From: a virus
UHGV virus genome: UHGV-0104313
Strand: one strand, 5' to 3'
Length of the DNA: 64,000 nt
Each line of letters starts with the position of its first letter. Position 1 is the stretch's first letter. The position numbers and the translations under genes are program-made. The notes under the pieces are model-generated. The model made no database searches, was not told where the DNA came from, and worked only from the letters and a program-made list of their open reading frames with translations. Positions 1,418 through 42,580 of this stretch are shown here, piece after piece.

Positions 1418-1462
1418 AATCCCTACCTATACCAACGATGTATTTTTAACTAAACAAAGAGG

Positions 1463-2044: not shown

Positions 2045-2479
2045 TTCTAATGCCGCGTCGGTGTAATTTATCTTGATAGAATAGGTACATTTATCGCGCG
2101 GCACATCAATTCGATGTATCTAGCGCCTGCTGACCGCTAATGAAAACTGTCCTCGAAATGTTGTCCCTAGCCCGAGACTAGGGTATCACCTCTGGAAAGC
2201 ATACGCAGAACCTTTTTTAACCCAAGGTGCCCAGCCTTTTTGCTGCTCGCCTTATTCGCAAAAATTAGCTCACATCCTGCGCTTTCAAGTGCTTTTCACT
2301 GCATAGCTGTGTTTTGTTCATTTGTCTATATGCGTACATAGCCTATTAGCATATTTTCTGCCCACTATCGTTATTTATTGCAAGCTACAGGTTTTAATTA
2401 ACAAAACCAGTGTGTGTGGAAATCACAAAGTGCATACCGTTCTCAGATGTTGTTCAACTTACTGTTGTATAGGTAAAAA

Positions 2480-4176: not shown

Positions 4177-4177
4177 C

Positions 4178-6459: not shown

Positions 6460-6471
6460 GGCGTAACAGGG

Positions 6472-9459
6472 ATGAGCTTAAGCGATCAGGTGGTAATGGC
6501 CACCAGCATAGAAACGCTGATCGAGCTGCTAAAGAACCTGCCCGATTATGGGCGGGTTTCGTATGTGGTGACAGCGAAGGGAGACGAGGTAAAAACAGCG
6601 TTTGATATCGTCGATGCCTCAGCTCTTTTGATATCCAATACTCTGGATGGGAAAATTAATCCTGACTATCCCCAGGAACTTCAGCCGCGCGACCGGACCC
6701 GCGCATCCAGCCTTCTTCAGGTTAACCAGATATCCAAAGATTTGCGGCCTGCTCAGCTTACCGATTCCGGTTTATCCAGCCATGGCGCGCCGATAATTGG
6801 TGAGGACAATGCCGTTGAGTCAGGTAATGGACGGACTATGGGGATCATCAAAGCCTATCAGGACGGCAATGCGGATCGGTATCGTGAGTACCTGATTGAA
6901 CATGCGACCGAATTCGGCATACCTCCTGAAAAGGTTGAATCAATGACGGCTCCGGTACTGGTGCGCCGCCGGTTAACTAAGGTTGACCGCGTTCAGTTTG
7001 CCAAGGACTCAAATATTTCTGATCTTCAGGAAATGGCAGCCAGTGAAAAGGCTTTTGTTGATGCCGACAGCATAACACCGGCGATGATGGCGCTGTTTAA
7101 TCCGTCAGAAAGCGGAGATCTGCTTAGCCGCAGTAATGACGCGTTTATTCGCGGATTCATGACGCAAGTTGGTGCCACACAGGCGGCTGGCCTTGTAACT
7201 GAAGATGGGCGACCAACACGGCAACTTGTAGACCGTATACAAAACGCGATCTTTGCCAAGGCATATAAGGATGCGCGCCTGGTAAGGATGGTTGCAGAAG
7301 AACCTGATCCGGATATGCGTAATGTTCTGACGGCGCTTAATGCGGCAGCCAATGATTTTGTCCAGATGCAGGCTTTATCAGGAGAAGCGCACAAGCAGGC
7401 TGTGACAACTATTGTTGATGGCATTGAGACAGCGGATAGCCTCGATAAAAAGGCGCTGGCGGCATTGAAAGATGCGGTAGACCTGGTAAGGCAATCGAAG
7501 GAGTCAGGCCAGCATATTACCGATGTTATTGCTCAGGGGGATATGTTCAGCGAAACGGCCCCGGAAGTGAAAGCACTCGCGTTGTTCATCGTCGCGAATA
7601 ACCGTAGCGCGAAGCGTATGGCCACCGCCTTTAAGTTGATGGCTCAACGTATCAATGATGAGTTACAGCACCAGGGCCAGGCGCTGGGGGATATGTTTGG
7701 CGGCGGCGATGTGTCGTTACAGGATATCCTTCGCCAGGTGTCTCAGGAACTGGAAAACGAAGGCATGCAAGGGATATCCGGCGGTCTTTTCGAGTCCGTT
7801 TCCGGCGGTAGTTACAACGGTGTTGCTCCGTATACCAGTTTGCTATTACATCGGGCATCCGGCATCAAAGACATTATTCATCTGATCAGGCTGCTTTCCC
7901 GCACAGATCCCCAGGATGAACAGCTTGTACAAGTGCTTGCGCATTTTGTTCGAATGCCTGTTGCCGACGTGAAAAAATGGTGCCGATTATTCGGTATCAG
8001 CAATTCGTTACTTCGCGGCTTGTTAAATCACGCATCCTCCCTTGGGCGCGATGGCTTTGACGAGATAGCGCAGGCGATAAAAAACGGAGATATGCCACCA
8101 GCTATTGACTGGTTTTCCATTCGCCCAACCAGGGTGAAAGCATTCCTTAGCGCGGCGCATTCGGCATCACCATTGGCAGAAATGGTTCAGAGGTTGTCGC
8201 TCATATTCACAGACCATACCGCGTTGGGTGATCTGACTCTGGACGAGATGAAAGAAGCCTCCATTCAGTGGGCCGATCAACAAAATGAGGTTAACTCAGA
8301 CTTCTTGCCAGCATTCAGGAAGGCCGTTAGTAAAGCGGATGATGCCCGTGGAATTCTGAAGGCATTTAAGGCATTGCAAAGTCGTGTTAATAAACATGTC
8401 GGTGATATCGATGGGGTAACGGCGGAAGGCCGGGATATCCTTAAAGAGCACGGCATAACGCCAGAGTTTATTGATGAGATCAGGACTGATATGCAGCGTG
8501 AGGTCGTATCGTCCCTGCAAATCGTAGCCAGAGCGTTGGCGGATGCTAATCCGAAGAGTGCGGCCATTGTTAACCGGGTTATTGGTGATATTGAAGCATC
8601 GGAGGGCATGGGGGCGCTGAAACTCTTCCTGTCGCGAGCGTTTAATCCTAACGGCAATATTCTCCCTGGCATTATTGGTGAGGCTAAAAAGTATGTCAGT
8701 GAAGAAGAACTTGAGCAGCTTGACCAACTACTTAAGCGATTCTCATATAACCCGCAGACACGCTGGCAAATGAATCAGCGAAGTATGGGTTCGGTCCACG
8801 AGAAAGTGTTATCTGCCATGAACAGTGCGATCGCAAACTCATCCGTATCTGAAGAAAAAGCTCTTGAGTGGGCCGACTCTTTTATCACGGAAGAAGTGGA
8901 AGAAGCCCGCGCTGGACAGAATGGTGGGATAGACCTGCGCAAGGAACTTGCTGATATTTATCGCCTGACCGGCGGGAAAATATCGACCTTATCAAAAGTG
9001 GTTCACCACCAGGGAAGGGCATATGCAAATCTAAATGGTGTTGTTGCTGTCAATTTGAACGATGAAAATGCAAGTGCACTGTGGCACGAGCTGGGTCATC
9101 ATCTTGAGTACAGTAACCCTGGTTTGTTAGAGAAAGCCCGGTCATTCCTGAAGGCCAATGTTGAAGGGGATAAGCCATCTTTCGTCAATATCGGTGGGCG
9201 TGGCAAGCCTGAATGGTGCTTCAGATCTCGATTGAGTAATATTTATATGGCGAAGGTATACCCGCCAGCCTCAGTAAGTAACACCGGGAAAATTCGGCAG
9301 AAATCACCGACTATTTCCAAAACGTCAGCAACGGAAGTATTCTCTATGGCTCTTCAGTTGTATCATGACAAAGAGGCCGCTGCCGCATCACTGATGAATG
9401 GTGACGGATTGCTGGAACTGTTATTAGGTGTGGCAAAGGAGCTAAATAATGCAGATTAA
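6472..9459 (+). CDS. ddrB: DdrB-like protein (Dar system component)
   Basis: 995-aa ORF downstream of ddrA-like gene; synteny and size only. Confidence 0.5.
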   Translation: MSLSDQVVMATSIETLIELLKNLPDYGRVSYVVTAKGDEVKTAFDIVDASALLISNTLDGKINPDYPQELQPRDRTRASSLLQVNQISKDLRPAQLTDSGLSSHGAPIIGEDNAVESGNGRTMGIIKAYQDGNADRYREYLIEHATEFGIPPEKVESMTAPVLVRRRLTKVDRVQFAKDSNISDLQEMAASEKAFVDADSITPAMMALFNPSESGDLLSRSNDAFIRGFMTQVGATQAAGLVTEDGRPTRQLVDRIQNAIFAKAYKDARLVRMVAEEPDPDMRNVLTALNAAANDFVQMQALSGEAHKQAVTTIVDGIETADSLDKKALAALKDAVDLVRQSKESGQHITDVIAQGDMFSETAPEVKALALFIVANNRSAKRMATAFKLMAQRINDELQHQGQALGDMFGGGDVSLQDILRQVSQELENEGMQGISGGLFESVSGGSYNGVAPYTSLLLHRASGIKDIIHLIRLLSRTDPQDEQLVQVLAHFVRMPVADVKKWCRLFGISNSLLRGLLNHASSLGRDGFDEIAQAIKNGDMPPAIDWFSIRPTRVKAFLSAAHSASPLAEMVQRLSLIFTDHTALGDLTLDEMKEASIQWADQQNEVNSDFLPAFRKAVSKADDARGILKAFKALQSRVNKHVGDIDGVTAEGRDILKEHGITPEFIDEIRTDMQREVVSSLQIVARALADANPKSAAIVNRVIGDIEASEGMGALKLFLSRAFNPNGNILPGIIGEAKKYVSEEELEQLDQLLKRFSYNPQTRWQMNQRSMGSVHEKVLSAMNSAIANSSVSEEKALEWADSFITEEVEEARAGQNGGIDLRKELADIYRLTGGKISTLSKVVHHQGRAYANLNGVVAVNLNDENASALWHELGHHLEYSNPGLLEKARSFLKANVEGDKPSFVNIGGRGKPEWCFRSRLSNIYMAKVYPPASVSNTGKIRQKSPTISKTSATEVFSMALQLYHDKEAAAASLMNGDGLLELLLGVAKELNNAD

Positions 9460-9757
9460 AATCGCAGCGCCATTAGGCGGAGATGCCATTATCGAATTTG
9501 ATGATAATGAAGAAGTTTCCGGGCGTTTAAGCATTATCTCCGGTGACATTACCGAGGACATGATCGCTGAAGCCATAGCTGGGGCAAATCCCAATAGCTA
9601 TATGGGATTCGTTAACACCCTTGATGCTCCCGCAAGTGATGTTCTCCGAACGCTGCATCTTTACGCTGGCTGGTTTGTTGATTGGCCAGCAGTAGATGGT
9701 GGCGATGAGGACGACGACGATGATTTTGGTGATCATGTAGACCAGATCGTATATTGA
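9449..9757 (+). CDS. small acidic protein, last gene of darA-type operon
   Basis: 102 aa with poly-Asp/Glu C-terminus; overlaps ddrB stop by 11 nt. Confidence 0.35.
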   Translation: MQIKIAAPLGGDAIIEFDDNEEVSGRLSIISGDITEDMIAEAIAGANPNSYMGFVNTLDAPASDVLRTLHLYAGWFVDWPAVDGGDEDDDDDFGDHVDQIVY

Positions 9758-9786
9758 AGAAATCCCGCCAATCGGCGGGATTTTTA
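9758..9786. terminator. rho-independent terminator hairpin between convergent operons
   Basis: aaatcccgcc-aatc-ggcgggattt followed by TT; between + strand darA operon and - strand ssb operon. Confidence 0.55.
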
Positions 9787-9788
9787 CC

Positions 9789-10883
9789 TCACGAGAAGCT
9801 TTTTTCTGATGTCAGCCAACAGTGCTCGTGCAAATCTCTTGGTGGTTTTTCGACAAATGCCTCTTCAGCCACATCCTGCCAGGGGATTTGTTTAGCCCAT
9901 TCAGCTATAGCGTTATGGTTTGCCGAGAATAACGGTATTGTATAGGCCTTCAGCCAGTCTAATGTGCTGGAGTTGTGTTTTTGAGCGTGATGTTTCGCAT
10001 GGTGTTTGGCGATCACGATCGTAGGCACTACCCATTTACTACCGTCAGTCATTGTGAAGTGCATATTACGGGGAACAGATGACTTTTCCATCAACTCCCG
10101 AATCCCGGGAAATTTCCCCAAGATCAATCGGCGATATTCATCGCTATTGCGCCCACCAAACTCTTTGGCTTTGAATTCAAGATATGCTTCAGAAACGAGA
10201 GGTGAATCCTCTGTGTTTAGAGTTATCGCCGTGAAAAAACCAGCAGGATTGTTTTTACTATGGGCCAACCGGTGATGCGAATCATAAAAGTACCCTTTCT
10301 CGCGTTCCGATGGTTTCGACAGCAACAGCAGGCGCGAGTCATAATTGGTTAAATTGCCAGTTATCACTGCATGAGCGCGATCGCTGATTTCCGCCGAGTT
10401 AATAACGATGAAAAGATCGTGCGGTCCAGTAAAACCAGCCAGAGACTCTTCGTTATTCAGACAATAGGTTATATAGACGCATCCCCATGTTTCACTGATA
10501 TGCACCAACCCTTTGTCAGGGTGTATTCTGAAATAATTGCCAAGAAAAGGGTGTTTTTGGGTAACTCGCTCCCAATAACGGAACATATAGTCAATTATTG
10601 TTTTTCGACTATCGTTAATCGCAGGAGAAACAACCACTGTACGGGAACACGAATACAGTATTGTTTGCAGGATGCTAATCACTGCCACAATAGAGGTTTC
10701 CCCAATACCATGTGGTGTGGTGGCAGTGACTTTGGCTCCGGTGTTCTTTATCGCGTTAATAATTTTTGCTTGATGAGGTGTTAACTCAATATCAAGCAAC
10801 TCTTTTGCTGCCAGTTCCCAATTGTCTTTATACCGTTCTATCAGTGCTAACCAGGCAGATTCATTCTGTATACGATTAATCAC
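9789..10883 (-). CDS. terminase-large-subunit (PacB)-like paralogue with degenerate ATPase motifs
   Basis: 364 aa; alignable by eye to the PacB ORF at 29908-31392 (e.g. ITGNLTNYDSRLLLLSKPSEREKGYFYDSHHRLA vs [33 protein letters not shown]); Walker A GHGTGKS replaced by PHGIGET, Walker B IIDEASG by VINSAEIS; no nuclease domain. Confidence 0.6.
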   Translation of the reverse strand: MINRIQNESAWLALIERYKDNWELAAKELLDIELTPHQAKIINAIKNTGAKVTATTPHGIGETSIVAVISILQTILYSCSRTVVVSPAINDSRKTIIDYMFRYWERVTQKHPFLGNYFRIHPDKGLVHISETWGCVYITYCLNNEESLAGFTGPHDLFIVINSAEISDRAHAVITGNLTNYDSRLLLLSKPSEREKGYFYDSHHRLAHSKNNPAGFFTAITLNTEDSPLVSEAYLEFKAKEFGGRNSDEYRRLILGKFPGIRELMEKSSVPRNMHFTMTDGSKWVVPTIVIAKHHAKHHAQKHNSSTLDWLKAYTIPLFSANHNAIAEWAKQIPWQDVAEEAFVEKPPRDLHEHCWLTSEKSFS

Positions 10884-23656: not shown

Positions 23657-23665
23657 TAATCATTT

Positions 23666-23688
23666 AAAGCCCATATGATATGGGCTTA
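23666..23688. terminator. perfect palindromic hairpin at left border of AT-rich insert
   Basis: aaagcccatat-g-atatgggcttaaa; 10-bp perfect inverted repeat, no strong U-tract. Confidence 0.35.
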
Positions 23689-23708
23689 AACAACAGGATC
23701 GATATACA

Positions 23709-24749
23709 GTGTTAGTTAAATATATAGGCGAGAGTTATATGGATAAACCTTGGCCGGGCATGCACATTAGAACATCTTGTCTGGAGGATGGTTTCTTTAG
23801 AGCAACGCAACCAAAGTATCTTAATGATCCGTCGAGTGAGTCGCGACTTCTTCCATTTTTTAATAAATTTTCACCAGCCGATTACGCATGGGCTAGAAAT
23901 GAATTTAAGAAAATGCAACGAGATCCATCTTATGTCCCATCTATACAAGAGTTAGAGTATTATTTAAAACCTTGCGGGAAACGATACGGAGAGGATTTTC
24001 CACACTTGTTAATCAATGAAGGTTTTACCTCAATGGATTCATATGATGAATCTAAACTCCAAGAAATAGTAACGTACCTTAACGATTATTTAGTAGAAGC
24101 CGTAAGCTGTCATCTTGGTGTGTTCTCTCTATCAAAAAGTGATTGCAATCTACACATGTGGACTCATTATGCATCGATAGGAAAGGGGTTTGCTGTAGTT
24201 TTCGATGAAACACACGATTTTTTCAAAATATATCGGCCGTGTGATGTTAGTTATAATCCAGAAGATAGAGCATCTGTAACCTATTATAAAGGCGCTGTGC
24301 GATTTAATGGCTATCCTGCGCCATCGAGGAATATAGATATAAAGAATAAAGATAATACATTGCATGGGATCTTAAATCGAGATTCAGTTCGCGAGCTTTT
24401 TATTAATAGGCTTCTTTATACAAAAGGTGAAGAGTGGCTTCCTGAAAATGAAAGTAGAATTATTTTTCCATTGGCTGATTGCGAGAGAAAAATAGGAAGC
24501 ATTGTCTCTCCATCGATTGATGATTGCCTATTAAATGAGTATCCTGATGTTTTTCATGACTATCATGAAATTAACTTAAAGAAAATTCCTTTTTCTGCAT
24601 TCAAGCAAATTACCTTAGGGTATAACATGACTGAAAAAGATAAAAATATAATTTTAGATAAAGTTAGTTCGAATAAAGAATTGTCTCACCTCAACGTATT
24701 ACAATCAAAACTTGATATATATGGAAAGGTTGTGGTTAATCCCATGTAA
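23709..24749 (+). CDS. hypothetical protein with DUF2971-like motifs; candidate cargo/defence gene at the res-mod locus
   Basis: 346 aa from GTG (alternative ATG at 23739 with better RBS); visibly AT-rich coding sequence; motifs KYIG, PKYLNDPSSE, MWTHYASIGKGFAVVFD; flanked by lxc-like and mat-like genes. Confidence 0.6.
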   Translation: MLVKYIGESYMDKPWPGMHIRTSCLEDGFFRATQPKYLNDPSSESRLLPFFNKFSPADYAWARNEFKKMQRDPSYVPSIQELEYYLKPCGKRYGEDFPHLLINEGFTSMDSYDESKLQEIVTYLNDYLVEAVSCHLGVFSLSKSDCNLHMWTHYASIGKGFAVVFDETHDFFKIYRPCDVSYNPEDRASVTYYKGAVRFNGYPAPSRNIDIKNKDNTLHGILNRDSVRELFINRLLYTKGEEWLPENESRIIFPLADCERKIGSIVSPSIDDCLLNEYPDVFHDYHEINLKKIPFSAFKQITLGYNMTEKDKNIILDKVSSNKELSHLNVLQSKLDIYGKVVVNPM

Positions 24750-24781
24750 TAATACGCTTATGTCTAAACTTCATGATAAAT

Positions 24782-24803
24782 ACCTTCCTTAACTTAGGAA
24801 GGT
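24782..24803. terminator. bidirectional terminator-like hairpin between convergent genes
   Basis: accttcct-taactt-aggaaggt, AT-rich flank on the minus-strand side. Confidence 0.45.
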
Positions 24804-24846
24804 GAGTTGTGGGTTTACGCAGAAAGTAACAAATAACCTTCGTAGG

Positions 24847-25488
24847 TTATAGAATATTATTCTTTCCGGTGAGTATTCCTTGAGGAACTCTAGCGCATCC
24901 CATAATTTGAGTTTTCTTGATGATGTTTATATATGACGCTATCAGCGATGAGTCATCACGACTATCCACTTCACAAGCCATTGCCCTGATGTAGTCGGCG
25001 CTGGCAACGTTGTTGTATTCCGTCGCAAAGCAACATAGTAACGTCAGAACATGCTCTGTCGTTATTTCGCTCCAGTTGATGTTGAAAAATTCATCGCCTT
25101 TTTTATCGTGTTCGGAATCGAAGATGCTTTGGTGGAGGATGTATTTGCCGGATTCCTTGCGCGGTAACTTGATTGCTTTCTGGCGTTCCAGCTCCTTATA
25201 AATCTGCATTGCCTCAATTAGTACCGGCCTGCCGTTCATGAAGGGATCGCGCAACCTTACACGCTGGCCAACTCGACCAGTAATAAAGCTGTTTTCCTCT
25301 TCCACCAGCACGATAAAACCCTTTTCCTCTTTTTCTCGCAATTCGCGCAGCAGCTGGAGTTCCATATCGCGGCGGCGTTCAGGGTAGCTGGTCCGCTCAG
25401 CCATTATCAGCTCGTTGTTGATCCATGCAGCAGTCATTGACGCCGGTTTGCCGACGCTCATCGAAACAACGCATATTTTCTTATCCAT
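24847..25488 (-). CDS. Mat-like protein
   Basis: ORF downstream of ref on minus strand; likely start at MDKKICVV (GTAGGGG RBS); synteny with P1 cre-cra-ref-mat. Confidence 0.35.
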   Translation of the reverse strand: MDKKICVVSMSVGKPASMTAAWINNELIMAERTSYPERRRDMELQLLRELREKEEKGFIVLVEEENSFITGRVGQRVRLRDPFMNGRPVLIEAMQIYKELERQKAIKLPRKESGKYILHQSIFDSEHDKKGDEFFNINWSEITTEHVLTLLCCFATEYNNVASADYIRAMACEVDSRDDSSLIASYINIIKKTQIMGCARVPQGILTGKNNIL

Positions 25489-28203: not shown

Positions 28204-28283
28204 TGATCAAATGATCAAGTGATCACTATTTGACCTGATAAGGTATTGAACTGTATGGATTTACAGGTAAATTGATCATGTTC
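28204..28283. promoter_or_regulatory. GATC-dense cre promoter region
   Basis: four GATC sites within ~70 bp (cttgatcaaatgatcaagtgatcac ... attgatcatg) between loxP and cre. Confidence 0.4.
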
Positions 28284-28296: not shown

Positions 28297-28330
28297 ATAA
28301 CTTCGTATAATGTATGCTATACGAAGTTAT
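28297..28330. other. loxP: loxP site
   Basis: exact ATAACTTCGTATA-ATGTATGC-TATACGAAGTTAT. Confidence 0.98.
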
Positions 28331-28373
28331 TAGGCCCGAAGAGGAGTTTACGTCCAGCTGCGCATAAAAATCA

Positions 28374-28390
28374 AGAATTATTAGAGCAAT
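28374..28390. promoter_or_regulatory. C1 operator (immC region)
   Basis: agaattattagagcaat followed by aaatttt. Confidence 0.55.
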
Positions 28391-28456
28391 AAATTTTGAG
28401 AGAAAAATCCCACTCCACCAGCCAAAAACTGGATTGTTTTTCATAGTTGTTTGACA

Positions 28457-28473
28457 ATTGCTCTAATAAATTA
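28457..28473. promoter_or_regulatory. C1 operator (immC region), overlapped by TTGACA -35-like hexamer
   Basis: attgctctaataaatta = 16/17 to consensus; ttgaca at 28452-28457. Confidence 0.65.
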
Positions 28474-28711
28474 TAGTTTTGCCGCCGTTTCGTAATACGA
28501 CTTTGGATTCACTATTTAATGTGTCTTCAGCGTTGTAGAGCGGCTCAGAAGGAAATGAGCAAACAGGGAAACCTTATACAACGGCATTACAGCTATGCAT
28601 TGCTCATCTTACACACAGCGCAATGTTGTTAGATTACCCCAGCATGGATCATGGGTGAAACAGTAGGTCAGAGCTTCAGGCTCTGTGTTGTCAATACAGT
28701 GAGGCATAATT

Positions 28712-28921
28712 ATGGCTTTCATTCCACCAACCATCGACGACGTTAGACATTGCTCTAACGCTTTATCTGTAGACCCTGCCGAAACCGACGCTGCCCGCGC
28801 CATTGCTGAACACTACTCAAAGATATCCAATCAGGAGTACCGCATCACCCAAGACGACCTGGATGATCTCACTGACACAATCGAATATCTCATGGCCACT
28901 AACCAGCCAGACTCACAATAA
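28712..28921 (+). CDS. coi: Coi-like (C1 inactivator) protein
   Basis: 69-aa acidic ORF immediately upstream of c1-like gene and downstream of operator pair. Confidence 0.5.
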   Translation: MAFIPPTIDDVRHCSNALSVDPAETDAARAIAEHYSKISNQEYRITQDDLDDLTDTIEYLMATNQPDSQ

Positions 28922-29031
28922 ATGCACTAATAAATCTATTATTTTCGTTGGATCCTTCTATAATGGTGGCCAACAACTCCCAGTGTAATCCGCTGTGAGT
29001 TGTTGGCCATGTCAATTCTGGAGGAGGATCA

Positions 29032-29883
29032 ATGATAAATTATGTCTACGGCGAACAACTGTACCAGGAGTTCGTCAGCTTCAGGGATCTCTTTCTAAAA
29101 AAAGCTGTTGCACGCGCCCAACACGTTGATGCCGCCAGCGACGGTCGTCCTGTACGCCCGGTTGTCGTTCTACCGTTCAAAGAAACGGACAGCATTCAGG
29201 CTGAAATTGATAAATGGACTTTAATGGCGCGGGAACTGGAACAGTACCCAGACCTCAATATCCCAAAGACTATTTTATATCCTGTGCCTAACATCCTTCG
29301 CGGTGTGCGTAAGGTTACGACTTATCAGACAGAAGCTGTGAACAGCGTCAACATGACCGCTGGCCGCATTATTCATCTGATTGATAAGGACATTCGCATC
29401 CAGAAAAGCGCGGGGATCAATGAGCACAGTGCGAAATACATAGAGAACCTGGAAGCAACAAAAGAGCTAATGAAGCAGTACCCGGAGGATGAAAAATTCC
29501 GTATGCGTGTACACGGCTTTAGCGAAACAATGCTGCGCGTCCACTACATTTCCAGTAGCCCTAACTACAATGATGGTAAATCAGTTAGTTACCATGTGCC
29601 GCTGTGTGGTGTGTTTATCTGCGATGAAACTCTCCGTGATGGAATCATCATCAACGGTGAATTCGAGAAAGCAAAATTTAGCCTTTATGACTCTATAGAA
29701 CCGATCATCTGCGACCGCTGGCCGCAGGCAAAAATATATCGCCTGGCAGATATTGAACATGTAAAAAAACAAATTGCCATCACTCGCGAAGAGAAAAAGG
29801 TCAAATCAGCCGCATCAGTTACGCGCAGCCGTAAAACTAAGAAGGGGCAGCCAGTAAACGACAACCCCGAAAGCGCGCAATAG
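29032..29883 (+). CDS. c1: C1-like master repressor
   Basis: 283 aa; located in the immC arrangement (loxP - operators - coi - c1, convergent with pacB); its operator sequence is scattered through the window. Confidence 0.75.
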   Translation: MINYVYGEQLYQEFVSFRDLFLKKAVARAQHVDAASDGRPVRPVVVLPFKETDSIQAEIDKWTLMARELEQYPDLNIPKTILYPVPNILRGVRKVTTYQTEAVNSVNMTAGRIIHLIDKDIRIQKSAGINEHSAKYIENLEATKELMKQYPEDEKFRMRVHGFSETMLRVHYISSSPNYNDGKSVSYHVPLCGVFICDETLRDGIIINGEFEKAKFSLYDSIEPIICDRWPQAKIYRLADIEHVKKQIAITREEKKVKSAASVTRSRKTKKGQPVNDNPESAQ

Positions 29884-29907
29884 TTTCTATCCGGCATGGT
29901 CAATGAG

Positions 29908-31392
29908 TTATTCATTAAGCCATGCCAGAGCTTCATCAACCTGCGCTTCGTCTTCGACGCTAAGCACTTCATCCTGGGGAACATAATCAGCCAGCATAGC
30001 GAAACAATATGTATCCCAATGGTCTGGTGAGTGCAGGTTGAGTTTTTTCTTCATATCCTCCTTACTCATCACCTTCCATTGACCTGCGGAGTTAATCCCT
30101 ACAGGGATTTTCGACGCTTCCTCAATAGTTTCATTACCCTTATCCAGTCTCATACGACCAGATTTTACGGCCTCTGCGGCTTGAACGTTGGCATAAGCAC
30201 GTTTATCAAAGTACAGGCTCTTATCTTCACGGCTATGCATCTTTTTACCCCAGCGTATACGCTGTACGGTAATACCATAATACTCGTACATCAGATCCGC
30301 CGTTGCTTTACCCAGGCCATCGCCGTCTATCGCTATGGTGATATTTGGGAATCGCTCAGGATTACATTCTGCGAAAATTTTGGCGGCAAGCTGCGTTTCT
30401 GTAACGTCTGTGTATTCCAGCATTCGATAGTTGATTACACGGCGTTTATTTCGCTGGCCGGACACCATCATGATATTGATAACGGACTTATCCCGTCCCG
30501 TACCACCAGCAACGTCCACACATGCAAGCCAGCCCCATCCTTTTGCAATCTTGACTTTCCGCCGCGTTGCACGTTCAACCTCATCACGTCCAAGAAGGAA
30601 GCCATCCTGTGATTTAGGGAATAGGCCGCGTACCTTAATCATGTACATAGGGTTATCACGCCCGCCGTACTCCGCCAGCTTCATTTTGATAAATGCTGGC
30701 GTTACCAACGGTGATTCCTCACTGTTAAGCGTGATCGCCGTATAAACGCCATCAGGGTTACCAGGACGCTTGGCCAGTTTATGGTGTGTATCGTAGAAAT
30801 AGCCGCTTGGGCGTGTAGGCTGTGACAGCAATAAGATGCGGTTATCCTGTCCGGTAAGAGCACCGGTGATGATACCGAAAGCTCTATCACTGACACCGGA
30901 GGCTTCATCGATAATATACAGAAGATGATCTGCGTGTTCACCGGCGAGAGCTTCTTCACTTCCCAGACGAAAGCCCTTCGGTACTACAGTCCATACACCT
31001 TTACCAGTAATCTCATAGAAAGCGGTTTCTGTCAGAACAAAATAATCAGCAAGCCATGGGAAACGGCTGGTGGCAGTAGCCCAGTTTATCTTGATGTACT
31101 TGAATATACCGGTCATTACCTGCTGAATTTTGTTCGCAACGATAATGGCACGGGCACCTGGATACATGATTATGAACAACATGATCATGATAGAAGTCAT
31201 GTCTGATTTCCCGGTACCGTGACCAGACGAAACAGATGTCTTGCTACCCTGTTCCTGCACAGACTCAATAATCAGATCCTGCTGCCAGGTAGGTGTTTTG
31301 CCGAACAAAACATCAGCGGCCGCAATCCAGTCATAACGATATAGCGCCACCAGCTCGCGCCAACGTGGATCCGTTACGCAACTTCTGGCCAT
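29908..31392 (-). CDS. pacB: terminase large subunit PacB
   Basis: 494 aa; Walker [10 protein letters not shown], Walker [11 protein letters not shown]; C-terminal nuclease-like region; downstream of pacA. Confidence 0.85.
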
Positions 31393-32585
31393 TAATCATC
31401 ATCCCCGTATAGCTTGCGGGTAACTTCTTCGTCTTCCTCCTCGTCTTCGTCCAGGTCTTGTTCCAGCCATGGGTCGTTTGATACACCTTCAGTATCAACA
31501 TCTCCATAACCGCCTGTATCAACGATATCGGCGATTTCTTCCCTACGCTGCTCAATCCACAATGCGGCATCGGCGCGGCGGTTGGCGGCCCGTTCTCGCG
31601 CAACTTTGTCCAGATCTTCAAGAGAAGGGCCACCGACGGCTGTTTGCCTTTCCTCATCATCGGTATTGGTCTTAGGAGCACGCAGATCGGCTTTGATTTG
31701 CTCCAGCATCAGGGGCGGCACTTTCCCGCCATGCGCCTCGATGAATTCAGCTGCTTCCAGCACTGACCAGTTATTTTCACGCTTTCGTTCGTATGCCAGC
31801 TTAACAATGCCAGCTTGCCCCATAGACAAAGCGTGCTTTTCCGCCTCCCGGCTTTCTTTTCGATAGTTATTCCGGATGCTGTAAATGGTGTTGATCAGGC
31901 TGCTTATCTGCGCGGAACAGCTGTTTAGCATGCTCGCGATACGGTATTCAGGCGGAGTACCTTCATCATCGTCTTTTTGCTGATCGCGCATTTCCTGCAC
32001 CAGGCGAATACACGTATCCCTGGCGTTCTCCAGCATAAGGAGATGAGAAAGAGACTTTTCCAGAAGAGTGGTTTCCAGAACATCGGCCCCGGACCGACGC
32101 AACATAGCGCGCGCGGCCTTCCGCGCTTCAACGTTATCTATCAGGTAATCGCCAGCTTCGAATTCAAAGCGTTCACCATCATCATCCAGGGTGTCGCGTT
32201 CCAGGCGATCACGTAAGGTCCGGTGGGCGCGGGTGATCACGTCATGATCATCTGAACGATCATTTATGCGCTTATTTTGGCGCTTCGCATTCTCGACTGC
32301 GGCACTGACAACGGCATTAACTCTTTGTTTTTCCGCTATTTCAGCCGAAATGTGATCACCTGCATGTTGATCATTAGAGTGATCAATGATCATGCTTTTT
32401 AGTGGCTTCCTGACTGGCTTATTTGACTTGCGGCTGTCCGTAGTCCTGGTGTCTTCTTTGAAGGCACGGAGATAACGACGTGCGGTATTAGGGTTAAGAT
32501 TAAACTCGGCGGCATACTGTGCGATGGTGTAACCACCATCTCGCGCCAGGCGAGCAAAATTCTTCTTGTGATCGTCCCAGGTCAC
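31392..32585 (-). CDS. pacA: terminase small/recognition subunit PacA
   Basis: 397 aa, N-terminal HTH-like region; contains the pac hexamer cluster in its coding sequence. Confidence 0.85.
32230..32395. other. pac: pac packaging site (TGATCA hexamer clusters)
   Basis: three TGATCA/CGATCA elements at 32234-32262 and four at 32352-32392, ~90 bp apart, inside pacA; matches the 3+4 Dam-methylatable hexamer layout of P1 pac. Confidence 0.7.
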
Positions 32586-32670
32586 TTATGCTTCCTTTCG
32601 TAAAAACTCTTTTTGACGCGAGGGTAACGAAAGTCACATGTCAAAAGGCCCGGAACGGGCAAGCAATCAA

Positions 32671-33123
32671 TCAGATACGTGCGGATGTGGCATTACCGTA
32701 ATGACGGTGCTGACGGGCCACCTTATTGAAAAGTTGACGCGCCATTACCCAAGGCTGGTGCTCCCGGCGTTCCTTTTCGTCCTGCGTCATATAGAGTTCG
32801 TTCTGGAGTTTTTCATCAAACCGGCGCGGAGCGCGGCTACGGCGAAAGAATTCAGGATTCAGAGAGTGGATCTGAAATCTACGTGGGCGTGTACTGTCAT
32901 CTATCAAAACAGACGAATACTTAGACACAGCGATAGCCTTTAAGCGCAGATAAACATCGCGCTTATCGACATCCAGATGCGGGTATTCCTTTTCAAGAAT
33001 TGCTGCGAGTTCTTTCGCTGATAGAAGAGATTTAGTGCGGATCATGTAATCCGCAATCTCGTACGATGTTATTCGTGAGTGATTTATTTCCATGAAGTGG
33101 CGTCCCTGCCAGTTAAGTAACAT
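32671..33123 (-). CDS. lpa: late promoter activator Lpa-like protein
   Basis: 150-aa ORF directly upstream of pacA with a C1 operator in front; synteny. Confidence 0.45.
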   Translation of the reverse strand: MLLNWQGRHFMEINHSRITSYEIADYMIRTKSLLSAKELAAILEKEYPHLDVDKRDVYLRLKAIAVSKYSSVLIDDSTRPRRFQIHSLNPEFFRRSRAPRRFDEKLQNELYMTQDEKERREHQPWVMARQLFNKVARQHRHYGNATSARI

Positions 33124-33193
33124 CCTGTCACCTACTGATTAGCCCATGTCAACTAATCAACGTGGAATATAATACCCTCGATTAAAGAAATAG

Positions 33194-33210
33194 CAATACA
33201 TTAGAGCAAT
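33194..33210. promoter_or_regulatory. C1 operator upstream of lpa-pacA-pacB operon
   Basis: caatacattagagcaat; core ATTAGAGCAAT. Confidence 0.5.
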
Positions 33211-33211
33211 T

Positions 33212-34255
33212 TTATCTAACACTCGACGAATGACTTGTGATAACGCCCACTCCAAGCGCGTAATCAAAGAACAATCGTTGATGCATCGCCAACCTACCGT
33301 GCGTCTTCTCCCAATTATCGCGGTCACGCTCAATATCACGCTGGCATGACTGGCACAGAGGAATTGCGTAAATGTCATGCGCGCATAATCGACTATGACG
33401 AACGATATAAGGCGTAATGTGAGCGCCAGCTCCCGCAGCTCCACACCCACAGCACGGACGGGAAGCAACAAAGTCCATGTACTCAGGTAATTTTAGCGAT
33501 CGCAGTTTTGGTATTTTGAAATGCGCCATGCCAGGGTCGGAGTCAACATCCACAGGGCATACTTTTGCACGCATCGGCGCGGCGCGTTCTTCCATCATCT
33601 GAACATATGCTGTAGCGCGATCGTCATACGGGCGAATATCCGCCTCTTTCAGAGGTCCGCTATCCTGCGGAGTAGCCTTCATCTTATTTATTGATATGCG
33701 GCAGACTTCTTCCGGCATCAGGTGCATCATGTTGCGCATGAAAGCCCACCAGCACAGCTCCTGAATACTTAAATCATGGCTATTTGAAAGGCCCATTTCC
33801 TGACGGGCGACATCCAGTATCCAGTTAACGCGATTATTGTGCAGCGTTTCTTTCAGCTCATTAAAACCACGCATCCGGTAATGGTTATCGTGATGCCAGC
33901 ACAACAACACCGCGCTATTGTCTCGTTCAGCGTGGACAATATGATTGTCACACCAACTACGATCTGCGGCCTGGCATTGACCCTCTTTCCTACGCAACCA
34001 CGCCACCAGCGCGTCAATTCCGCCAATACGGCGAAACAGTTCATCGCTGTTAAAAAACGGCTGCAACGCCTCATTTGTTGCCATGGTTTGCTCGGTAACA
34101 ACGAGGCCGTCTTCCATGTGCTCGATTAACTCACGCGGCACCGGCTCCATAATAAATTTACGGCCAGCCTCCACCAGCTTTCTGACCTCCTGATCCACTT
34201 TGAACGTGGCGAGGCCAAGCTCTTTCTGTACAAAGGGAGTAATTACGGCTTTCAC
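33212..34255 (-). CDS. hypothetical protein with C-terminal Cys cluster (post-doc region)
   Basis: 347-aa ORF; CCGCG...CQSCQ cysteine motifs near C-terminus. Confidence 0.4.
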
Positions 34256-34282
34256 ATCACACCTTTCATCACTGATTGGGCT

Positions 34283-34483
34283 TTATCTGCTGCCCGGCAT
34301 TCTCTGTTTAAGCACAACCATTTCCTGACGGCATAACACAGCAATAGCGGTCCTGACTCCAATTTGCTTACCAACCAGGTATTGCTTTACCTTGCGGCGA
34401 CTCACGCCATCAAGAAGCATCTTTAACGCTTCACGGGACAATTTGTTGTATTTGCGTGCCATTAATCTACTCCGCAGAACCAT
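34283..34483 (-). CDS. hypothetical small basic protein
   Basis: 66-aa ORF, Lys/Arg-rich. Confidence 0.3.
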   Translation of the reverse strand: MVLRSRLMARKYNKLSREALKMLLDGVSRRKVKQYLVGKQIGVRTAIAVLCRQEMVVLKQRMPGSR

Positions 34484-34742
34484 ACAATCTACGTAGCGTG
34501 GTAGCAGTAGATGCAGATATCGCCCTTAAAACCTCCTCCTTACTTACATCACTGCGGGAGAGGATTTCAGAAGGCGATATTTCCTTTAACGACTTTTGCT
34601 TCTCTTTGCAGTTCTCGACCAGTTCCGCAGGAATAACAAACCTGCTATCAATCGGCACAAGTTCATCAAGCGTTTGTTTGGGTACGTTAAACGTAGGATT
34701 CTTGAACACCGCAGATTCGGTTCTTAAGTTAATTTTCGACAT
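34467..34742 (-). CDS. hypothetical protein downstream of doc
   Basis: 91-aa ORF. Confidence 0.35.
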   Translation of the reverse strand: MSKINLRTESAVFKNPTFNVPKQTLDELVPIDSRFVIPAELVENCKEKQKSLKEISPSEILSRSDVSKEEVLRAISASTATTLRRLYGSAE

Positions 34743-37224: not shown

Positions 37225-38153
37225 ACTTCACCCTCGCTTGTATCGCCAGCATCCACCAGCGGCAATAAAGCCCTGGCCATCTTATGAACCAATAGTGCAT
37301 CAATAATGCCAAGCGTATGCCCCGGCTTAATGTTTAATGCCGCCTCAAGGTGACACCTTTCCAGGCCACTTTTCTCGGCTTGTTTATGATGATCTGGTGT
37401 AATAACGTCGCCCAAAACACGGCTAATTCTTTCTCGTAATTGCTGGGTGCCAGCACACTTGATCGCTGTATCGTGGAGACGGTTAACCAGTTCGCGATAA
37501 ACATGCGGCTTAATTCGGATACGTTCACCGGTGACGCCCTTTCCTGGTGCTGGCACCGAACTATCCGGAATATCCGGATAGTTGCCAGCCTCGTAAGCTA
37601 CCCGCAGCCAGTGCATGAATGTTTCAGTGGACACACAACCACAGTCCACATCGATTTTCCCGCGTTGCTGTTCCAGCCATTGCCCAAAATCCAACCTGTA
37701 AGTCTTACTTTCAAGTTCATCACCATTGAACTCGACTTTCTGCGACGCTATGAGAGCTGATTCGTATTGTTCGCGAGTGACAACTGACTGGTATTCATCG
37801 CTATCAAGGTCACCAATTGGAAGCTCAATCTCACAACAAAAATTGCGCCCAAAGAAAGTGTCTTTTTTGTGGTCTGAGCCAAAAGCAAAAGTCGCGCATG
37901 GTGCCATTAAATTGACACTGGGTAGGTAACAATAACTCATTCCATCAGGCCACCCGCCGCACTTAGGCAGTTCCTTCACTAACAAGTCGATAAACTTCAT
38001 TTTTTTATCATCTTTGCAAGCCGCCAAAGCCATTTGGGCAAGTGCCAATACTTCATCTGCCGTATATCCAGCACCGTGACCATACATTTCGATACGGGAA
38101 ATAATCTCTGATATACGCTCTTCAGTGATTCTGGTCATTTCTTTTTGCGCCAT
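37221..38153 (-). CDS. hypothetical protein
   Basis: 310-aa ORF, overlapping stop/start with neighbours. Confidence 0.45.
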   Translation of the reverse strand: MAQKEMTRITEERISEIISRIEMYGHGAGYTADEVLALAQMALAACKDDKKMKFIDLLVKELPKCGGWPDGMSYCYLPSVNLMAPCATFAFGSDHKKDTFFGRNFCCEIELPIGDLDSDEYQSVVTREQYESALIASQKVEFNGDELESKTYRLDFGQWLEQQRGKIDVDCGCVSTETFMHWLRVAYEAGNYPDIPDSSVPAPGKGVTGERIRIKPHVYRELVNRLHDTAIKCAGTQQLRERISRVLGDVITPDHHKQAEKSGLERCHLEAALNIKPGHTLGIIDALLVHKMARALLPLVDAGDTSEGEV

Positions 38154-38509
38154 TTCTTTTCACATTCCTTAGTCCATTTTTCAATGTTCATTTTGGCAAT
38201 ATCAGTCATTCCATCACCTAAGAAATACTTTCTCCGGTACGTCTTGCACTTAAACCACACTACAACAGCCACCAGCCAGAAAATAAAAGGCCATACAGCA
38301 ATACCAACTCCAGCCGCGATAAAGCCCAATAGCCATAAATGAAGCTCTCCAACTTCTGTTTGCGGCAATATTCTTAAAGAATTAAGCAGCAGACTGAAGG
38401 AATAGTCGTATGCATTGGCGGTATAAGACATGCAATCCATATAATTAAAGTCATAGCCTGCGGCTGCCGCCCATAATGGGCGGTCAAGAAAATGTTTTAG
38501 TGTCATCAT
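38135..38509 (-). CDS. hypothetical membrane protein
   Basis: 124 aa, two hydrophobic helices, Lys-rich C-terminus. Confidence 0.4.
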   Translation of the reverse strand: MMTLKHFLDRPLWAAAAGYDFNYMDCMSYTANAYDYSFSLLLNSLRILPQTEVGELHLWLLGFIAAGVGIAVWPFIFWLVAVVVWFKCKTYRRKYFLGDGMTDIAKMNIEKWTKECEKKWRKKK

Positions 38510-38515
38510 ATAAAT

Positions 38516-38905
38516 TTAAGGTTCAGACCAGTTATCTTCAATAGCAATGCTTAATCTTTGTAGCCATTCTGCTAATTTCAGCATTGCTTCTCTTTCGCTT
38601 AAACCACGAGGAAAATCATCAAGCGAAATTGTTGGCTTGAAGCCCCCGTAATTATCTATTTCAACAGTCAGATTTTGCTCCAGCACGGTATTCCTTACGC
38701 GGCTATTGTGCCGAAGCAAATATACTGAACGTGATTTATTGGTTTTATGGTCAAACTGATATTCGGTAAGTATCATCTGGCTTTTGCCATGACTATTACC
38801 TCTCCACATACTTACCTCACTTAATAAAACAACTCCATGCGTAGTTGATGATTTTTTCCCACGTAATATAAATCTGCACTCCGGCAGTAAAACCAAAGCC
38901 AACAA
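38516..38905 (-). CDS. hypothetical protein
   Basis: 129-aa ORF. Confidence 0.35.
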   Translation of the reverse strand: MLALVLLPECRFILRGKKSSTTHGVVLLSEVSMWRGNSHGKSQMILTEYQFDHKTNKSRSVYLLRHNSRVRNTVLEQNLTVEIDNYGGFKPTISLDDFPRGLSEREAMLKLAEWLQRLSIAIEDNWSEP

Positions 38906-38987
38906 TTGCTGAAAAAATCAAAACATTTACTTTTGACATTATAAATTTTCTCTCGGTGTCGTAGGTGATAGCACCATAATTGATAAT

Positions 38988-39239
38988 TTAGTGAGTTAGC
39001 AGTTCCATTTTTTGGATGATTTCCGCATGAGCATCATCGTTATCAACACTTAACTCGTTTAATGCCTCTCGCACTACATCAACTTCTTCTGGTTGGAAGA
39101 AGTCATCTCGGTAGTCACCAAATAGAACCGAAACAAGCCTGCCACCAGCAACATCAAGATTGGCGCTAACAGGTGGCTCTTTACCATCCTCAAATTCGAC
39201 TACAAAAGTTATTTTTCCCATCGTTACCACCAGCGACAA
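38988..39239 (-). CDS. hypothetical small acidic protein
   Basis: 83-aa ORF. Confidence 0.35.
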   Translation of the reverse strand: MSLVVTMGKITFVVEFEDGKEPPVSANLDVAGGRLVSVLFGDYRDDFFQPEEVDVVREALNELSVDNDDAHAEIIQKMELLTH

Positions 39240-39303
39240 ATTGAATACAAACCCAGTGCTGCCGCCATCACAATTCCTACCGTGGTGAATGCTTCAGGCC
39301 AGC

Positions 39304-40209
39304 TCATTGATTCACCTCCTGCGGCGGTTCTGGTAGCGGCATCCAGTGTGACGGTTTCCACGACGCACCAGGAATTATCCACCCATCATTAGCGTCAGGA
39401 TGCCCCGGGATGTAAGTAGCCCATTTCATTCGCCAGTCACCTTTCCTGTCAAACTCCACGGCAACAAGAACGGCTGTTTTGGTATTCGGCATTCGCTCAC
39501 TACAGCTTATCCAACCATCCGGAGTTACCGGAACTTGCGGAATGGCTGTCTGCTCTCGAACGTCATTAGGCGCTATAGGTTCTGCTGCCAACTGACTGGC
39601 ATATTTGTTAATGGTAACGATAAGCTCTTGCTCAGCCTCATCCAGACAATCACCGATACCTCGCCTGTCACCGTCAAAATCATCGAAATCGGCACGAATC
39701 TTGGCAACCTTCAGGATTGCGGACAACACCTCACTAGGAATTACCGGATAGTTGGTTGACGTTTCCGCGATTTCCCGAAAATTATTGGTTGACGAATTCT
39801 TGTTTTCCCGAAAGTTTCCGGACTGAAGCATGGCGGCGCGGCAGGCGTTCCAGCCAGCTGTTCGCCCAAGCGCGTAAACTTCAGATGGCTCAAGATAATC
39901 AATGTCATGCCCGTCCTCATCGTCGTTCTCAGGTAATGCAGCAGGTACTACCGGTACTGGCGGAGCGGTGTAGACCTCAATAATCCCATTATCAATAGGC
40001 CATTCTCCATCCTTGAGATAGTCACTTGTGCCGTCAACTTGCTGTTCAGCAATGTGGAATGCACCAACTGGCTCTGCCTCAAGCGAGGCCAGTGCAATTC
40101 GTGCCAGTTCTTCCGCTTCTTCTGCTGGCAGTACAACGTTGCTACCAGGTCCGTATGTTTCGCGCCACTGCCTGATTGTCAGCAGTCGCTCTTTGGTAAT
40201 AGTGGTCAT
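39304..40209 (-). CDS. hypothetical protein with DUF551-like C-terminus
   Basis: 301 aa; C-terminal WISCSERMP...ANDGW...HWMPLPEPP pattern recalled from phage DUF551 proteins. Confidence 0.45.
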   Translation of the reverse strand: MTTITKERLLTIRQWRETYGPGSNVVLPAEEAEELARIALASLEAEPVGAFHIAEQQVDGTSDYLKDGEWPIDNGIIEVYTAPPVPVVPAALPENDDEDGHDIDYLEPSEVYALGRTAGWNACRAAMLQSGNFRENKNSSTNNFREIAETSTNYPVIPSEVLSAILKVAKIRADFDDFDGDRRGIGDCLDEAEQELIVTINKYASQLAAEPIAPNDVREQTAIPQVPVTPDGWISCSERMPNTKTAVLVAVEFDRKGDWRMKWATYIPGHPDANDGWIIPGASWKPSHWMPLPEPPQEVNQ

Positions 40210-40219
40210 GTGTTAGTCC

Positions 40220-40525
40220 TTATCCTGCTGTACTTTCAACTGATGAGGGGAATAAAATCTTTTCATCAAATCCGGCATTCATATCATGAACAGCAACACA
40301 CCAATCCATTGACGAACGATTATCAAGAGCCTCCATGATTTCATCCATGCGGCGCAGGTCATACAGGTAAATGCTTTTATCGCCAATGGTGTAAAAACCA
40401 ATTTTTTTCGGTGATGGGCAGCGATCAAGAACGTCCTGTAATTCGCTCAACCATGCTTGTTCTTTTTTTGTCAAAGTTGCCATATCACTCTCCTTTGATG
40501 CCAATGCCAGCGGCGCGGGAATCAT
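40220..40525 (-). CDS. hypothetical protein
   Basis: 101-aa ORF. Confidence 0.35.
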   Translation of the reverse strand: MIPAPLALASKESDMATLTKKEQAWLSELQDVLDRCPSPKKIGFYTIGDKSIYLYDLRRMDEIMEALDNRSSMDWCVAVHDMNAGFDEKILFPSSVESTAG

Positions 40526-41042
40526 CCCATCGCTTTACTTCTTCACGAATTACGTCAATGCATTCTTTCGAATCCATTAGGTAATCTTCATCAAAAAGAC
40601 GTTCCTGTTCGTTTTCTATCGCAACAATGATTGCTTCAACTAACTTTTGTGCCTGAGAACCACTTTCTAACTCTGCTATGCGCTTACTCCCATCAGAGAT
40701 AACACCTTCGTAATACTCACGCTGCTCGTTGAGTTTTGATTTTGCTGCTTCCAGCTCAACGCGCAACTTCCCTACCGTTAGTGCAATATCCTCGTTCTCC
40801 TGGTCGCGGGATTTGATGTATTGCTGGTTCCTTTCCCGTTCATCCAGTAGTGCCAAAGCAATCTTTGGATTAAAGGCAGCAATAAATTCAGCGTTGTTTT
40901 TCAGAACGTGTTGCGCAATGGCCTGACTACTTAGTCGGACCTCATAACCACGTGCGCCACGGTGTGGTTTATATGAGTCCCAGTCTCCCCACGTTGCCTT
41001 CTCTGCCGCCTCACGCAGTGCCTGATAGTCAATCTTGTTCAT
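40485..41042 (-). CDS. Ead/Ea22-like phage protein (paralogue A)
   Basis: 185 aa; N-terminus MNKIDYQALREAAEKATWGDW. Confidence 0.45.
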   Translation of the reverse strand: MNKIDYQALREAAEKATWGDWDSYKPHRGARGYEVRLSSQAIAQHVLKNNAEFIAAFNPKIALALLDERERNQQYIKSRDQENEDIALTVGKLRVELEAAKSKLNEQREYYEGVISDGSKRIAELESGSQAQKLVEAIIVAIENEQERLFDEDYLMDSKECIDVIREEVKRWDDSRAAGIGIKGE

Positions 41043-41043
41043 G

Positions 41044-41376
41044 TCACATCACCCTGAATCCGTTGCATTTACGTAAGAAATCGCAGATATAGCCCTTCAT
41101 TTTTTCATGCCAATCTCGATCATTCCCATTGCACCAACCATCAGGTGGAGTCCAGTTTTCTATCAGAGCAGCCATTTTCTTTGCTTTCGCCGGAGTAGCT
41201 GTTGCGGTATCGCAGTAATGACGAGTGTCAACCAACGCATCCATACCATCGATATCAAGTACGCAAAACCATGTGTGATTCGGAATTCCTACAGGTGGTA
41301 TTTGTTGCCCACGTCGACGTTTATCAATAAGATATACACTCACTGCTTGCCTCCTTTGCGAATCTGTTCCGCCCAT
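41044..41376 (-). CDS. hypothetical protein
   Basis: 110-aa ORF. Confidence 0.35.
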   Translation of the reverse strand: MGGTDSQRRQAVSVYLIDKRRRGQQIPPVGIPNHTWFCVLDIDGMDALVDTRHYCDTATATPAKAKKMAALIENWTPPDGWCNGNDRDWHEKMKGYICDFLRKCNGFRVM

Positions 41377-42065
41377 TCTTCAAGGGATTTCTCCGCATAT
41401 TCACCGGACAGGCCATCAATCGGATGCGGTTCATTAGCCAACTCTTCTTTCGCTGACAAAATCATGCGTGTAACGTCGAAAACTTCACGCAAAGATTTAT
41501 TGATAAATCCGTGATTGAACGCAGCAGCAAGACGGCTGGCGGTATAGTTAATCCCCTCGTTGCGTGCTTCCGCACGAATTTCAGCCAGAAAAGCATCGGT
41601 GGCTGAAATATTTCCTGTTGCCTTCATGGCCCCCAAAATAACCAGAACGCCATCTCGCCCAACCTCCTCAGCGATAACCTCGGTGTTGTCGCCAACAACA
41701 TCGCAGAATGCCTGAACTGCCTTACGAGCCAGCTCATTCTCCGCCGCCAGCGCCGCGCACTTGGCCTCAAGAGCGGCAACCACTTCCTGATGGTCTTTGT
41801 ACTTAACGTATGAGCCGGAGATGTCATCACCTTCGGTGTTTAGCCATGCGTCATTGCAATTCACTGCGTAGGTTCTGATGCTCATGTTGATGCTCTCCCG
41901 CCCCTGACAGACGCTAGGCCAGTCAATAAAGTATCCGCAATGCCTACCCTCAGACGTGCGCGCAGGATAAATGCCGTTATGACCCGGCAAAATATATGCT
42001 ACCCATTCATCTTGCGTTGCCTGTTTCGCCGCCTCGCGCAGTTCTTTATAGTTAATTTCGCTCAC
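41340..42065 (-). CDS. Ead/Ea22-like phage protein (paralogue B)
   Basis: 241 aa; N-terminus MSEINYKELREAAKQATQDEW; C-terminus EQIRKGGKQ. Confidence 0.45.
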   Translation of the reverse strand: MSEINYKELREAAKQATQDEWVAYILPGHNGIYPARTSEGRHCGYFIDWPSVCQGRESINMSIRTYAVNCNDAWLNTEGDDISGSYVKYKDHQEVVAALEAKCAALAAENELARKAVQAFCDVVGDNTEVIAEEVGRDGVLVILGAMKATGNISATDAFLAEIRAEARNEGINYTASRLAAAFNHGFINKSLREVFDVTRMILSAKEELANEPHPIDGLSGEYAEKSLEEWAEQIRKGGKQ

Positions 42066-42301
42066 TGGTTGCCTCCTTTACGGATCTGCGCTGCGATGCG
42101 CGAAAAAAAAGACTCCCGCGTATGACTGTTAAGAGCTGGCGCGAACGCTGCGTTAAGAACAGCAGCATCACAGCCGTCATCAATATAGAGCGCAATTTTT
42201 TTCTCCAGGCGCGCTTTGGCTTCCTGCAACTGCATACCCCGGCACGCACGCGGGATATAATCAGCAATTTGAGCGATAGCCTTTTCGTTCTGTTTAAACA
42301 T
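42062..42301 (-). CDS. hypothetical protein sharing C-terminal tail with upstream gene
   Basis: 79 aa ending AAQIRKGGNQ, same tail as the 241-aa ORF. Confidence 0.35.
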   Translation of the reverse strand: MFKQNEKAIAQIADYIPRACRGMQLQEAKARLEKKIALYIDDGCDAAVLNAAFAPALNSHTRESFFSRIAAQIRKGGNQ

Positions 42302-42497
42302 GCTTCACCTCGATAGGCTTGATGGTGTCTAACAGCAGTCGGCGGCGCGTATTTTCTGCAAAATGGCGGCGTCCAGTTTCTTTGTGGTAAAACTCGTTTT
42401 TGCCGACGACCCACATCCGCTCTGTTTGGTGCAGTTTTTTTACCTGCGGACCGTCTTTGGTGATCACGGTGCCGGTATGGGTTTTTACGATTGTCAT
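42294..42497 (-). CDS. hypothetical small protein
   Basis: 67-aa ORF. Confidence 0.3.
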   Translation of the reverse strand: MTIVKTHTGTVITKDGPQVKKLHQTERMWVVGKNEFYHKETGRRHFAENTRRRLLLDTIKPIEVKHV

Positions 42498-42580
42498 GCC
42501 ACTACCTATTCGAACAGATGAACGAGACAGGCCGATGCTCGTCCACCTGAAAAACTGACGATTTGATGCATACTCACGGT

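Follow-up and report, generated by a model that had tools for sequence, protein, structure and literature searches.

A probable P1-type pac site in the pacA gene of phage-plasmid UHGV-0104313, with recognition hexamers that are invariant in a hypervariable stretch

The DNA analysed here, hereafter the window, is a stretch of 64,000 nucleotides from UHGV virus genome UHGV-0104313, and within it positions 32234-32392 of the minus strand are very probably a cis-acting pac site, at which a P1-type phage-plasmid starts to package its DNA. This core of 159 bp comprises seven TGATC(A/G) hexamers and a 90 bp spacer, corresponds to positions 90722-90880 of the reference P1 record AF234172 and has one mismatch to it. 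The P1 pac site is already known and the window copy adds nothing new on P1 biology; an initial annotation of this DNA, made from the sequence alone, had rightly called the feature conventional, the same site being already described in P1. That the element carrying the site would methylate, cleave and package its DNA as P1 does is something we infer from the near-identity to P1.

On the plus strand the cluster of three hexamers reads TGATCA (32234-32239), TGATCA (32245-32250) and CGATCA (32257-32262), and the cluster of four reads TGATCA at 32353-32358, 32368-32373, 32380-32385 and 32387-32392. In the pacA sense, which is the minus strand, all seven hexamers take the form TGATC(A/G), four followed by three, and the odd one is TGATCG. 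The HEX4 cluster (32353-32392, minus strand) has four copies of TGATCA starting at 32387, 32380, 32368 and 32353, equivalent to pacA nucleotides 194, 201, 213 and 228, and the HEX3 cluster (32234-32262, minus strand) has the sense TGATCG at 32257-32262 followed by TGATCA at 32245 and 32234, equivalent to pacA nucleotides 324, 336 and 347. The spacer between the two clusters is exactly 90 nt (32263-32352), and the seven hexamers all lie inside pacA, at nucleotides 194-352 of the open reading frame that runs from 31392 to 32585 on the minus strand. The initial annotation had described three plus four hexamers within pacA, at 32230-32395, in clusters about 90 bp apart, and the exact positions bear this description out on each point.

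The Dam site GATC is present in all seven hexamers. Seven GATC per 166 bp is the maximum for the 64 kb window, in which the runner-up stretch has four, and the observed maximum of seven YGATCA per 166 bp compares with four or fewer in 500 dinucleotide-preserving shuffles; plain GATC reaches seven per 166 bp stretch in 2 of 300 shuffles. The arrangement of seven hexamers is far beyond chance. An eighth sense-strand TGATCG, which went unmentioned in the initial annotation, lies at 32205-32210, 22 bp past hexamer 7. In 11 P1-group sequences it does not vary, and it has no counterpart at the same offset in a more distant group, consisting of Cronobacter phage JK004 and three Salmonella plasmids, that is described below; because its offset is not kept in that group, we treat this hexamer as lying outside the core.

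The pac site of P1 is said to have been described in classical work by Sternberg and Coulby in 1987 and 1990 and by Skorupski et al. in 1994. It spans about 161 bp within pacA and has seven TGATCA/G repeats (HEX4 and HEX3) with Dam sites, an IHF site and central cleavage; the hemimethylated site is bound, further methylation permits cutting, and cleavage requires PacA, PacB, IHF and HU (PMC10028697). The published account agrees with the initial annotation, according to which the P1 pac site has this hexamer architecture and is controlled by Dam methylation.

Window coordinates were obtained by subtracting the AF234172 record coordinate from 123114. With this conversion, the primary P1 cuts at 90804/5, 90806/7, 90810/11 and 90812/13 give, by homology, an expected pac cleavage zone at 32301-32310, which is covered by a stretch identical to P1 (32296-32314), and the IHF binding site annotated as protein_bind at 90784-90796 falls at 32318-32330 on the minus strand, where the sense sequence AAACAAAGAGTTA is identical to that of P1. 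The spacer carries both the P1-identical cut positions and the IHF site, and its length of 90 bp and the overall span of 159 bp are as in P1-type pac. The sole mismatch of the core, at 32348, is a G to T change in the sense strand that replaces Ala80 of PacA by Ser; it lies 5 nt from hexamer 4 and outside the hexamers, the IHF site and the cut positions. The same base is found in P1 record MH422554, the position is polymorphic in the population, and a core identical to that of the window occurs in 5 of 80 IMG/VR pacA genes. The identification as a P1-type pac site, which the initial annotation had made from the hexamers, is borne out by the one-mismatch core, by the P1-identical cut and IHF sequences and by the annotated P1 features. 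Mapping of virion DNA ends, which that annotation had proposed as a check, has already been done on P1 itself: when P1 virions were re-sequenced, their DNA had two termini, separated by 6 bp, in agreement with the classical mapping of Sternberg and Coulby (PMC5557969).

The genes around the site are those of the P1 packaging region. The product of pacA (31392-32585, minus strand) is a pac-recognition, small-terminase-like subunit of 397 aa that matches phrog_1711 ‘terminase’ (E 6e-204), has a weak N-terminal HTH and is 96.5% identical in amino acid sequence to P1 PacA. Downstream in the pacA sense is pacB (29908-31392, minus strand), collinear with its P1 namesake, which encodes the large terminase subunit (phrog_2 ‘terminase large subunit’, E 2.5e-40). 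Transcription of pacAB is driven by the late promoter LPpac, at 32621-32639 on the minus strand (AF234172 feature 90475-90493), within a stretch from 32584 to 32644 that is identical to P1, and lpa (32671-33123, minus strand), annotated as Lpa in P1 and its relatives, encodes the late-promoter activator needed for LPpac. The pac site, in the 5’ third of pacA, upstream of pacB and under LPpac, has the position of a P1-type site. An exact 34 bp match to loxP is found on the plus strand at 28297-28330; going from the cleavage zone in the sense of pacA, it is 3.97 kb away. A phage DNA methyltransferase gene, dmt (59319-61583, minus strand), encodes 754 aa with a match to PF02086 (D12 N6-adenine, Dam-class; E 1e-56) and one to PF00145; it is collinear with the dmt gene of P1, for which AF234172 gives GATC methylation as the function, and its product is predicted to be able to methylate the GATCs of the hexamers. 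All six of these features, pacA, pacB, lpa, LPpac, loxP and dmt, are present and intact.

Comparison at larger scale points the same way. The region 31800-32800 is 99.6-99.7% identical to P1 records, and the kilobase around pac is 96.7-99.1% identical to P7, RCS47, SJ46 and others, in which pacA and lpa are annotated. A blastn search against AF234172 gave eight collinear blocks in reverse orientation at 94-99% identity, which together take up about 54 of the 64 kb and extend from the cin region through lox to upfB, covering the packaging, immunity, lox-cre, morphogenesis and plasmid-maintenance regions. The best plasmid matches to the window are E. coli P1-like plasmids of about 97 kb, and judged by its sequence the carrier of the pac site is a P1-like phage-plasmid (Punavirus). 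The window shares with P1 (AF234172 / NC_005856) the pacA location of the site, the seven hexamers arranged four plus three, the 90 bp spacer, the cleavage-zone and IHF-site sequences and the layout of pacB, LPpac, lpa, loxP and dmt; it differs in one base of the 159 bp core and in the 3’ part of pacA, which is more diverged.

If the site works as in P1, initiation of packaging would proceed as follows. Late in lytic growth Lpa would turn on LPpac, and PacA and PacB would be made. The pacase would bind both clusters, HEX4 and HEX3, the 90 bp spacer would be bent by IHF (with HU), and the cut would be made in mid-spacer, within about one helical turn, at 32301-32310. Cutting would need both strands of the hexamer GATCs to carry methylated adenine, whether from host Dam or from phage Dmt; newly replicated, hemimethylated sites would be bound and left uncut, with roughly one pac cut per concatemer as the expected outcome, and headful packaging in one direction would then follow. 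P1 packages in the pacA sense, towards lox, which in the window is towards lower coordinates. Given that direction, loxP would presumably lie in the terminal redundancy of the first headful, and the neighbours expected to be packaged first would be pacB, c1 and lox-cre. The pac site anchors the annotation of the window as the expected start of headful packaging in this P1-like phage-plasmid, and its position should be of use for transduction prediction and for phagemid construction.

A pac site that is genuine by descent could also be carried by an element that is now a defective plasmid prophage and has lost packaging. The 64 kb seen here are only part of the element, and P1 segments are replaced or absent (res/mod and the IS1 region), a 5 kb insert is present and the C-segment is diverged, all of which might be expected of a decaying element. 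Against this, the six features listed above, from pacA to dmt, are all intact, and the blocks of head and tail genes align collinearly with those of P1 at 97-99% identity. The replaced segments are accessory regions, of which at least the 5 kb insert region is common to many similar E. coli plasmids. We therefore consider a relic very unlikely, and the reading as a pac site of a P1-type phage-plasmid is preferred.

Clustered GATC sites have other uses, and instead of a packaging site the clusters could be a Dam- or SeqA-controlled element of transcription or replication, for instance a promoter (internal or antisense) or a sequestration site like that of an origin. P1 does regulate by clustered GATC elsewhere, at oriR and in the regulatory regions of cre and kilA (AF234172 annotation), and TGATCA is next most densely clustered in the window at 28204-28278, which is the cre regulatory region, beside loxP. 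The annotated P1 features in the pac span, however, are cleavage sites and an IHF site, with no promoter, iteron or DnaA box among them, and the termini of P1 virion DNA map at pac (PMC5557969). We found no sigma-70-like promoter in 31900-32750 on either strand, which leaves a promoter reading of the hexamer clusters unsupported. A regulatory role in place of packaging is, in our judgement, extremely improbable.

Conservation among close relatives of the packaging site distinguishes the hexamers from the DNA around them. Across 11 named sequences of the P1 group, all 42 hexamer columns are constant, compared with 18 variable columns among the 117 others of the core (Fisher p = 0.004). We also compared 80 P1-group pacA genes from IMG/VR, the 80 best matches kept from a scan by N-terminal peptide patterns, which selects independently of the hexamers and, with this cut-off, samples distant lineages thinly. 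All seven hexamers are kept in 77 of these 80 genes, which have 36 distinct cores, the window core being one of the 36; the exceptions are two genes with TGATCG at hexamer 4 and one in which the GATC of hexamer 4 is lost. Variable columns number 2 of 42 in the hexamers and 36 of 117 in the rest of the core (p = 5e-4); these conservation statistics, and those given below, take alignment columns as independent and ignore shared ancestry. Among the same 80 genes, pacA nucleotides 121-300 (window 32285-32465) are the most polymorphic part of the gene at both the DNA and the protein level, with pi of 40-61 per thousand compared with 7-35 elsewhere in pacA; half of the codons in nucleotides 181-300 are variable, and the cleavage positions themselves (nucleotides 276-285) are polymorphic. 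Within this hypervariable stretch the hexamers stand out as invariant islands. In P7, RCS47, SJ46, phiW39, JL22 and other Punavirus genomes, and in P1-like plasmids of E. coli and Salmonella, the seven hexamers are invariant in register, whereas polymorphism in the spacer extends to the cut positions and to the N4 part of the IHF site.

The register of the hexamers is kept over a much longer distance. PacA of Cronobacter phage JK004 and of three Salmonella plasmids (CP053320, NZ_CP146848 and NZ_CP077703), which we take to be phage D6-like, is about 70% identical to that of the window. In these four, six hexamers occur at identical pacA offsets (201, 213 and 228; 324, 336 and 347) with 35-36 of 36 bases identical, the HEX3 hexamers matching in sequence as well, while identity over the other 123 core bases is 48-50% (p = 6e-10 to 4e-8). 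This group, too, has a spacer of 90 bp, about 50% different in sequence, and no indel was found in the 90 bp spacer among the P1-group or JK004/Salmonella sequences compared. The group differs further in the absence of hexamer 1 (nucleotide 194), and the Salmonella plasmids have CGATCA as hexamer 3 and an extra TGATCA at nucleotide 275. A scan for the six-hexamer pattern with fixed spacing, which is biased by construction and was used for specificity only, found at least 120 IMG/VR stretches, and all 44 that were examined were pacA of the P1 type or of the JK004/Salmonella type. The invariance of the hexamers in a variable stretch and the conservation of their register in these distant relatives are a modest addition of this comparison, and the latter may already have been published.

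The hexamers lie in a coding sequence, and they might be a by-product of a PacA linker rich in Asp-His, Asp-Gln and Asp-Arg, in which GAT-CAx codons yield GATC. The GAT (Asp) frame is used in five of the seven hexamers, and Asp codons in pacA are preferentially GAT (31, compared with 12 GAC). A five-sequence alignment shows that the PacA segment around the hexamers is a variable linker, and in the HEX4-side half of this linker (aa 54-95) the protein alignment has just four invariant residues, D68, D72, Q73 and D77, for which hexamers 2-4 are the coding sequence. Although the protein segment around them is hypervariable, the residues that the hexamers encode are invariant down to the exact codon; the motif is preserved in two different frames, hexamers 1 and 7 reading ATG-ATC-A and GTG-ATC-A; and in the JK004/Salmonella group the offsets are exact to the base at a background identity of about 49%. 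In P1, moreover, mutating the hexamers synonymously lowered the titre about 9-fold (PMC10028697). The conservation pattern, the use of two frames and the published synonymous mutants rule out an origin as a coding by-product, to which we assign next to no probability. The hexamer motif is selected as DNA, independently of the encoded protein.

More remote homologues retain a related layout. A scan of genome contigs for homologues returned 6 loci, the distant lineages being thinly sampled, and five PacA homologues at about 30% identity are from Xenorhabdus: one on a megaplasmid of X. bovienii (L017, 1644-1855) and four on contigs of four other species (L020-L023). Directly past the part that codes for the HTH they have three TGATCA islands, invariant in otherwise poorly conserved DNA, and one or two further TGATCA islands 140-152 bp downstream of the first three. 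Stop codons are present in two of these genes, L022 and L023, which are apparently decayed.

The constant length of the spacer in the P1 and JK004/Salmonella groups, together with the polymorphic cut positions, would fit a cut placed by distance. We see even chances that the layout of hexamer islands is an old, family-wide feature of PacA terminases, not a peculiarity of P1, and that the pacase finds its cutting point by the distance to the methylated clusters, leaving the sequence at the cut unread. Were this so, pac would be predictable from sequence in these phage-plasmids. The sequence-specific pac sites of other headful phages, such as those of P22 (gene 3) and SPP1 (gene 1), likewise lie within the gene for the small-terminase, or recognition, subunit and direct headful packaging in one direction, as in P1. 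They differ in that they are not known to have clusters of Dam-site hexamers or to be controlled by adenine methylation, and their recognition proteins are not known to be homologues of PacA.

Several smaller differences between the window and reference P1 were seen in the course of the comparison. In the cre regulatory region, the TGACCA of reference P1 (record 89-94) is TGATCA in the window (28220-28225), giving three tandem TGATCA with an 8 bp period compared with the two annotated Dam sites of P1; in P1 those annotated sites adjoin or overlap the -35 of promoter P3cre. The block 28314-34521, from c1 to doc and including pacAB, is 94% identical to reference P1, compared with 96-99% in the other blocks, and pacA in its 3’ part resembles RCS47 more closely than P1. 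Reference P1 has the EcoPI res/mod genes and IS5 (record ~3348-9749), which are absent from the window; in their place, at 23657-24967, is an open reading frame of 346 aa on the plus strand (23709-24749) with a DUF2971 domain. At 37597-42614 the window has a 5 kb stretch with no P1 counterpart, at the point where the P1 pmgT/pmgU region (record ~85182) is interrupted; it encodes two Ead/Ea22-like proteins and a DUF551 protein and is common to many E. coli P1-like plasmids. At 9756-10874 an open reading frame of 364 aa (9789-10883, minus strand) that has no Pfam match takes the place of the P1 IS1 region. The left end of the window (1-2175) carries a Cin-like invertase gene (1463-2044) and a tail-collar open reading frame (13-489), neither of which has a blastn match to AF234172.
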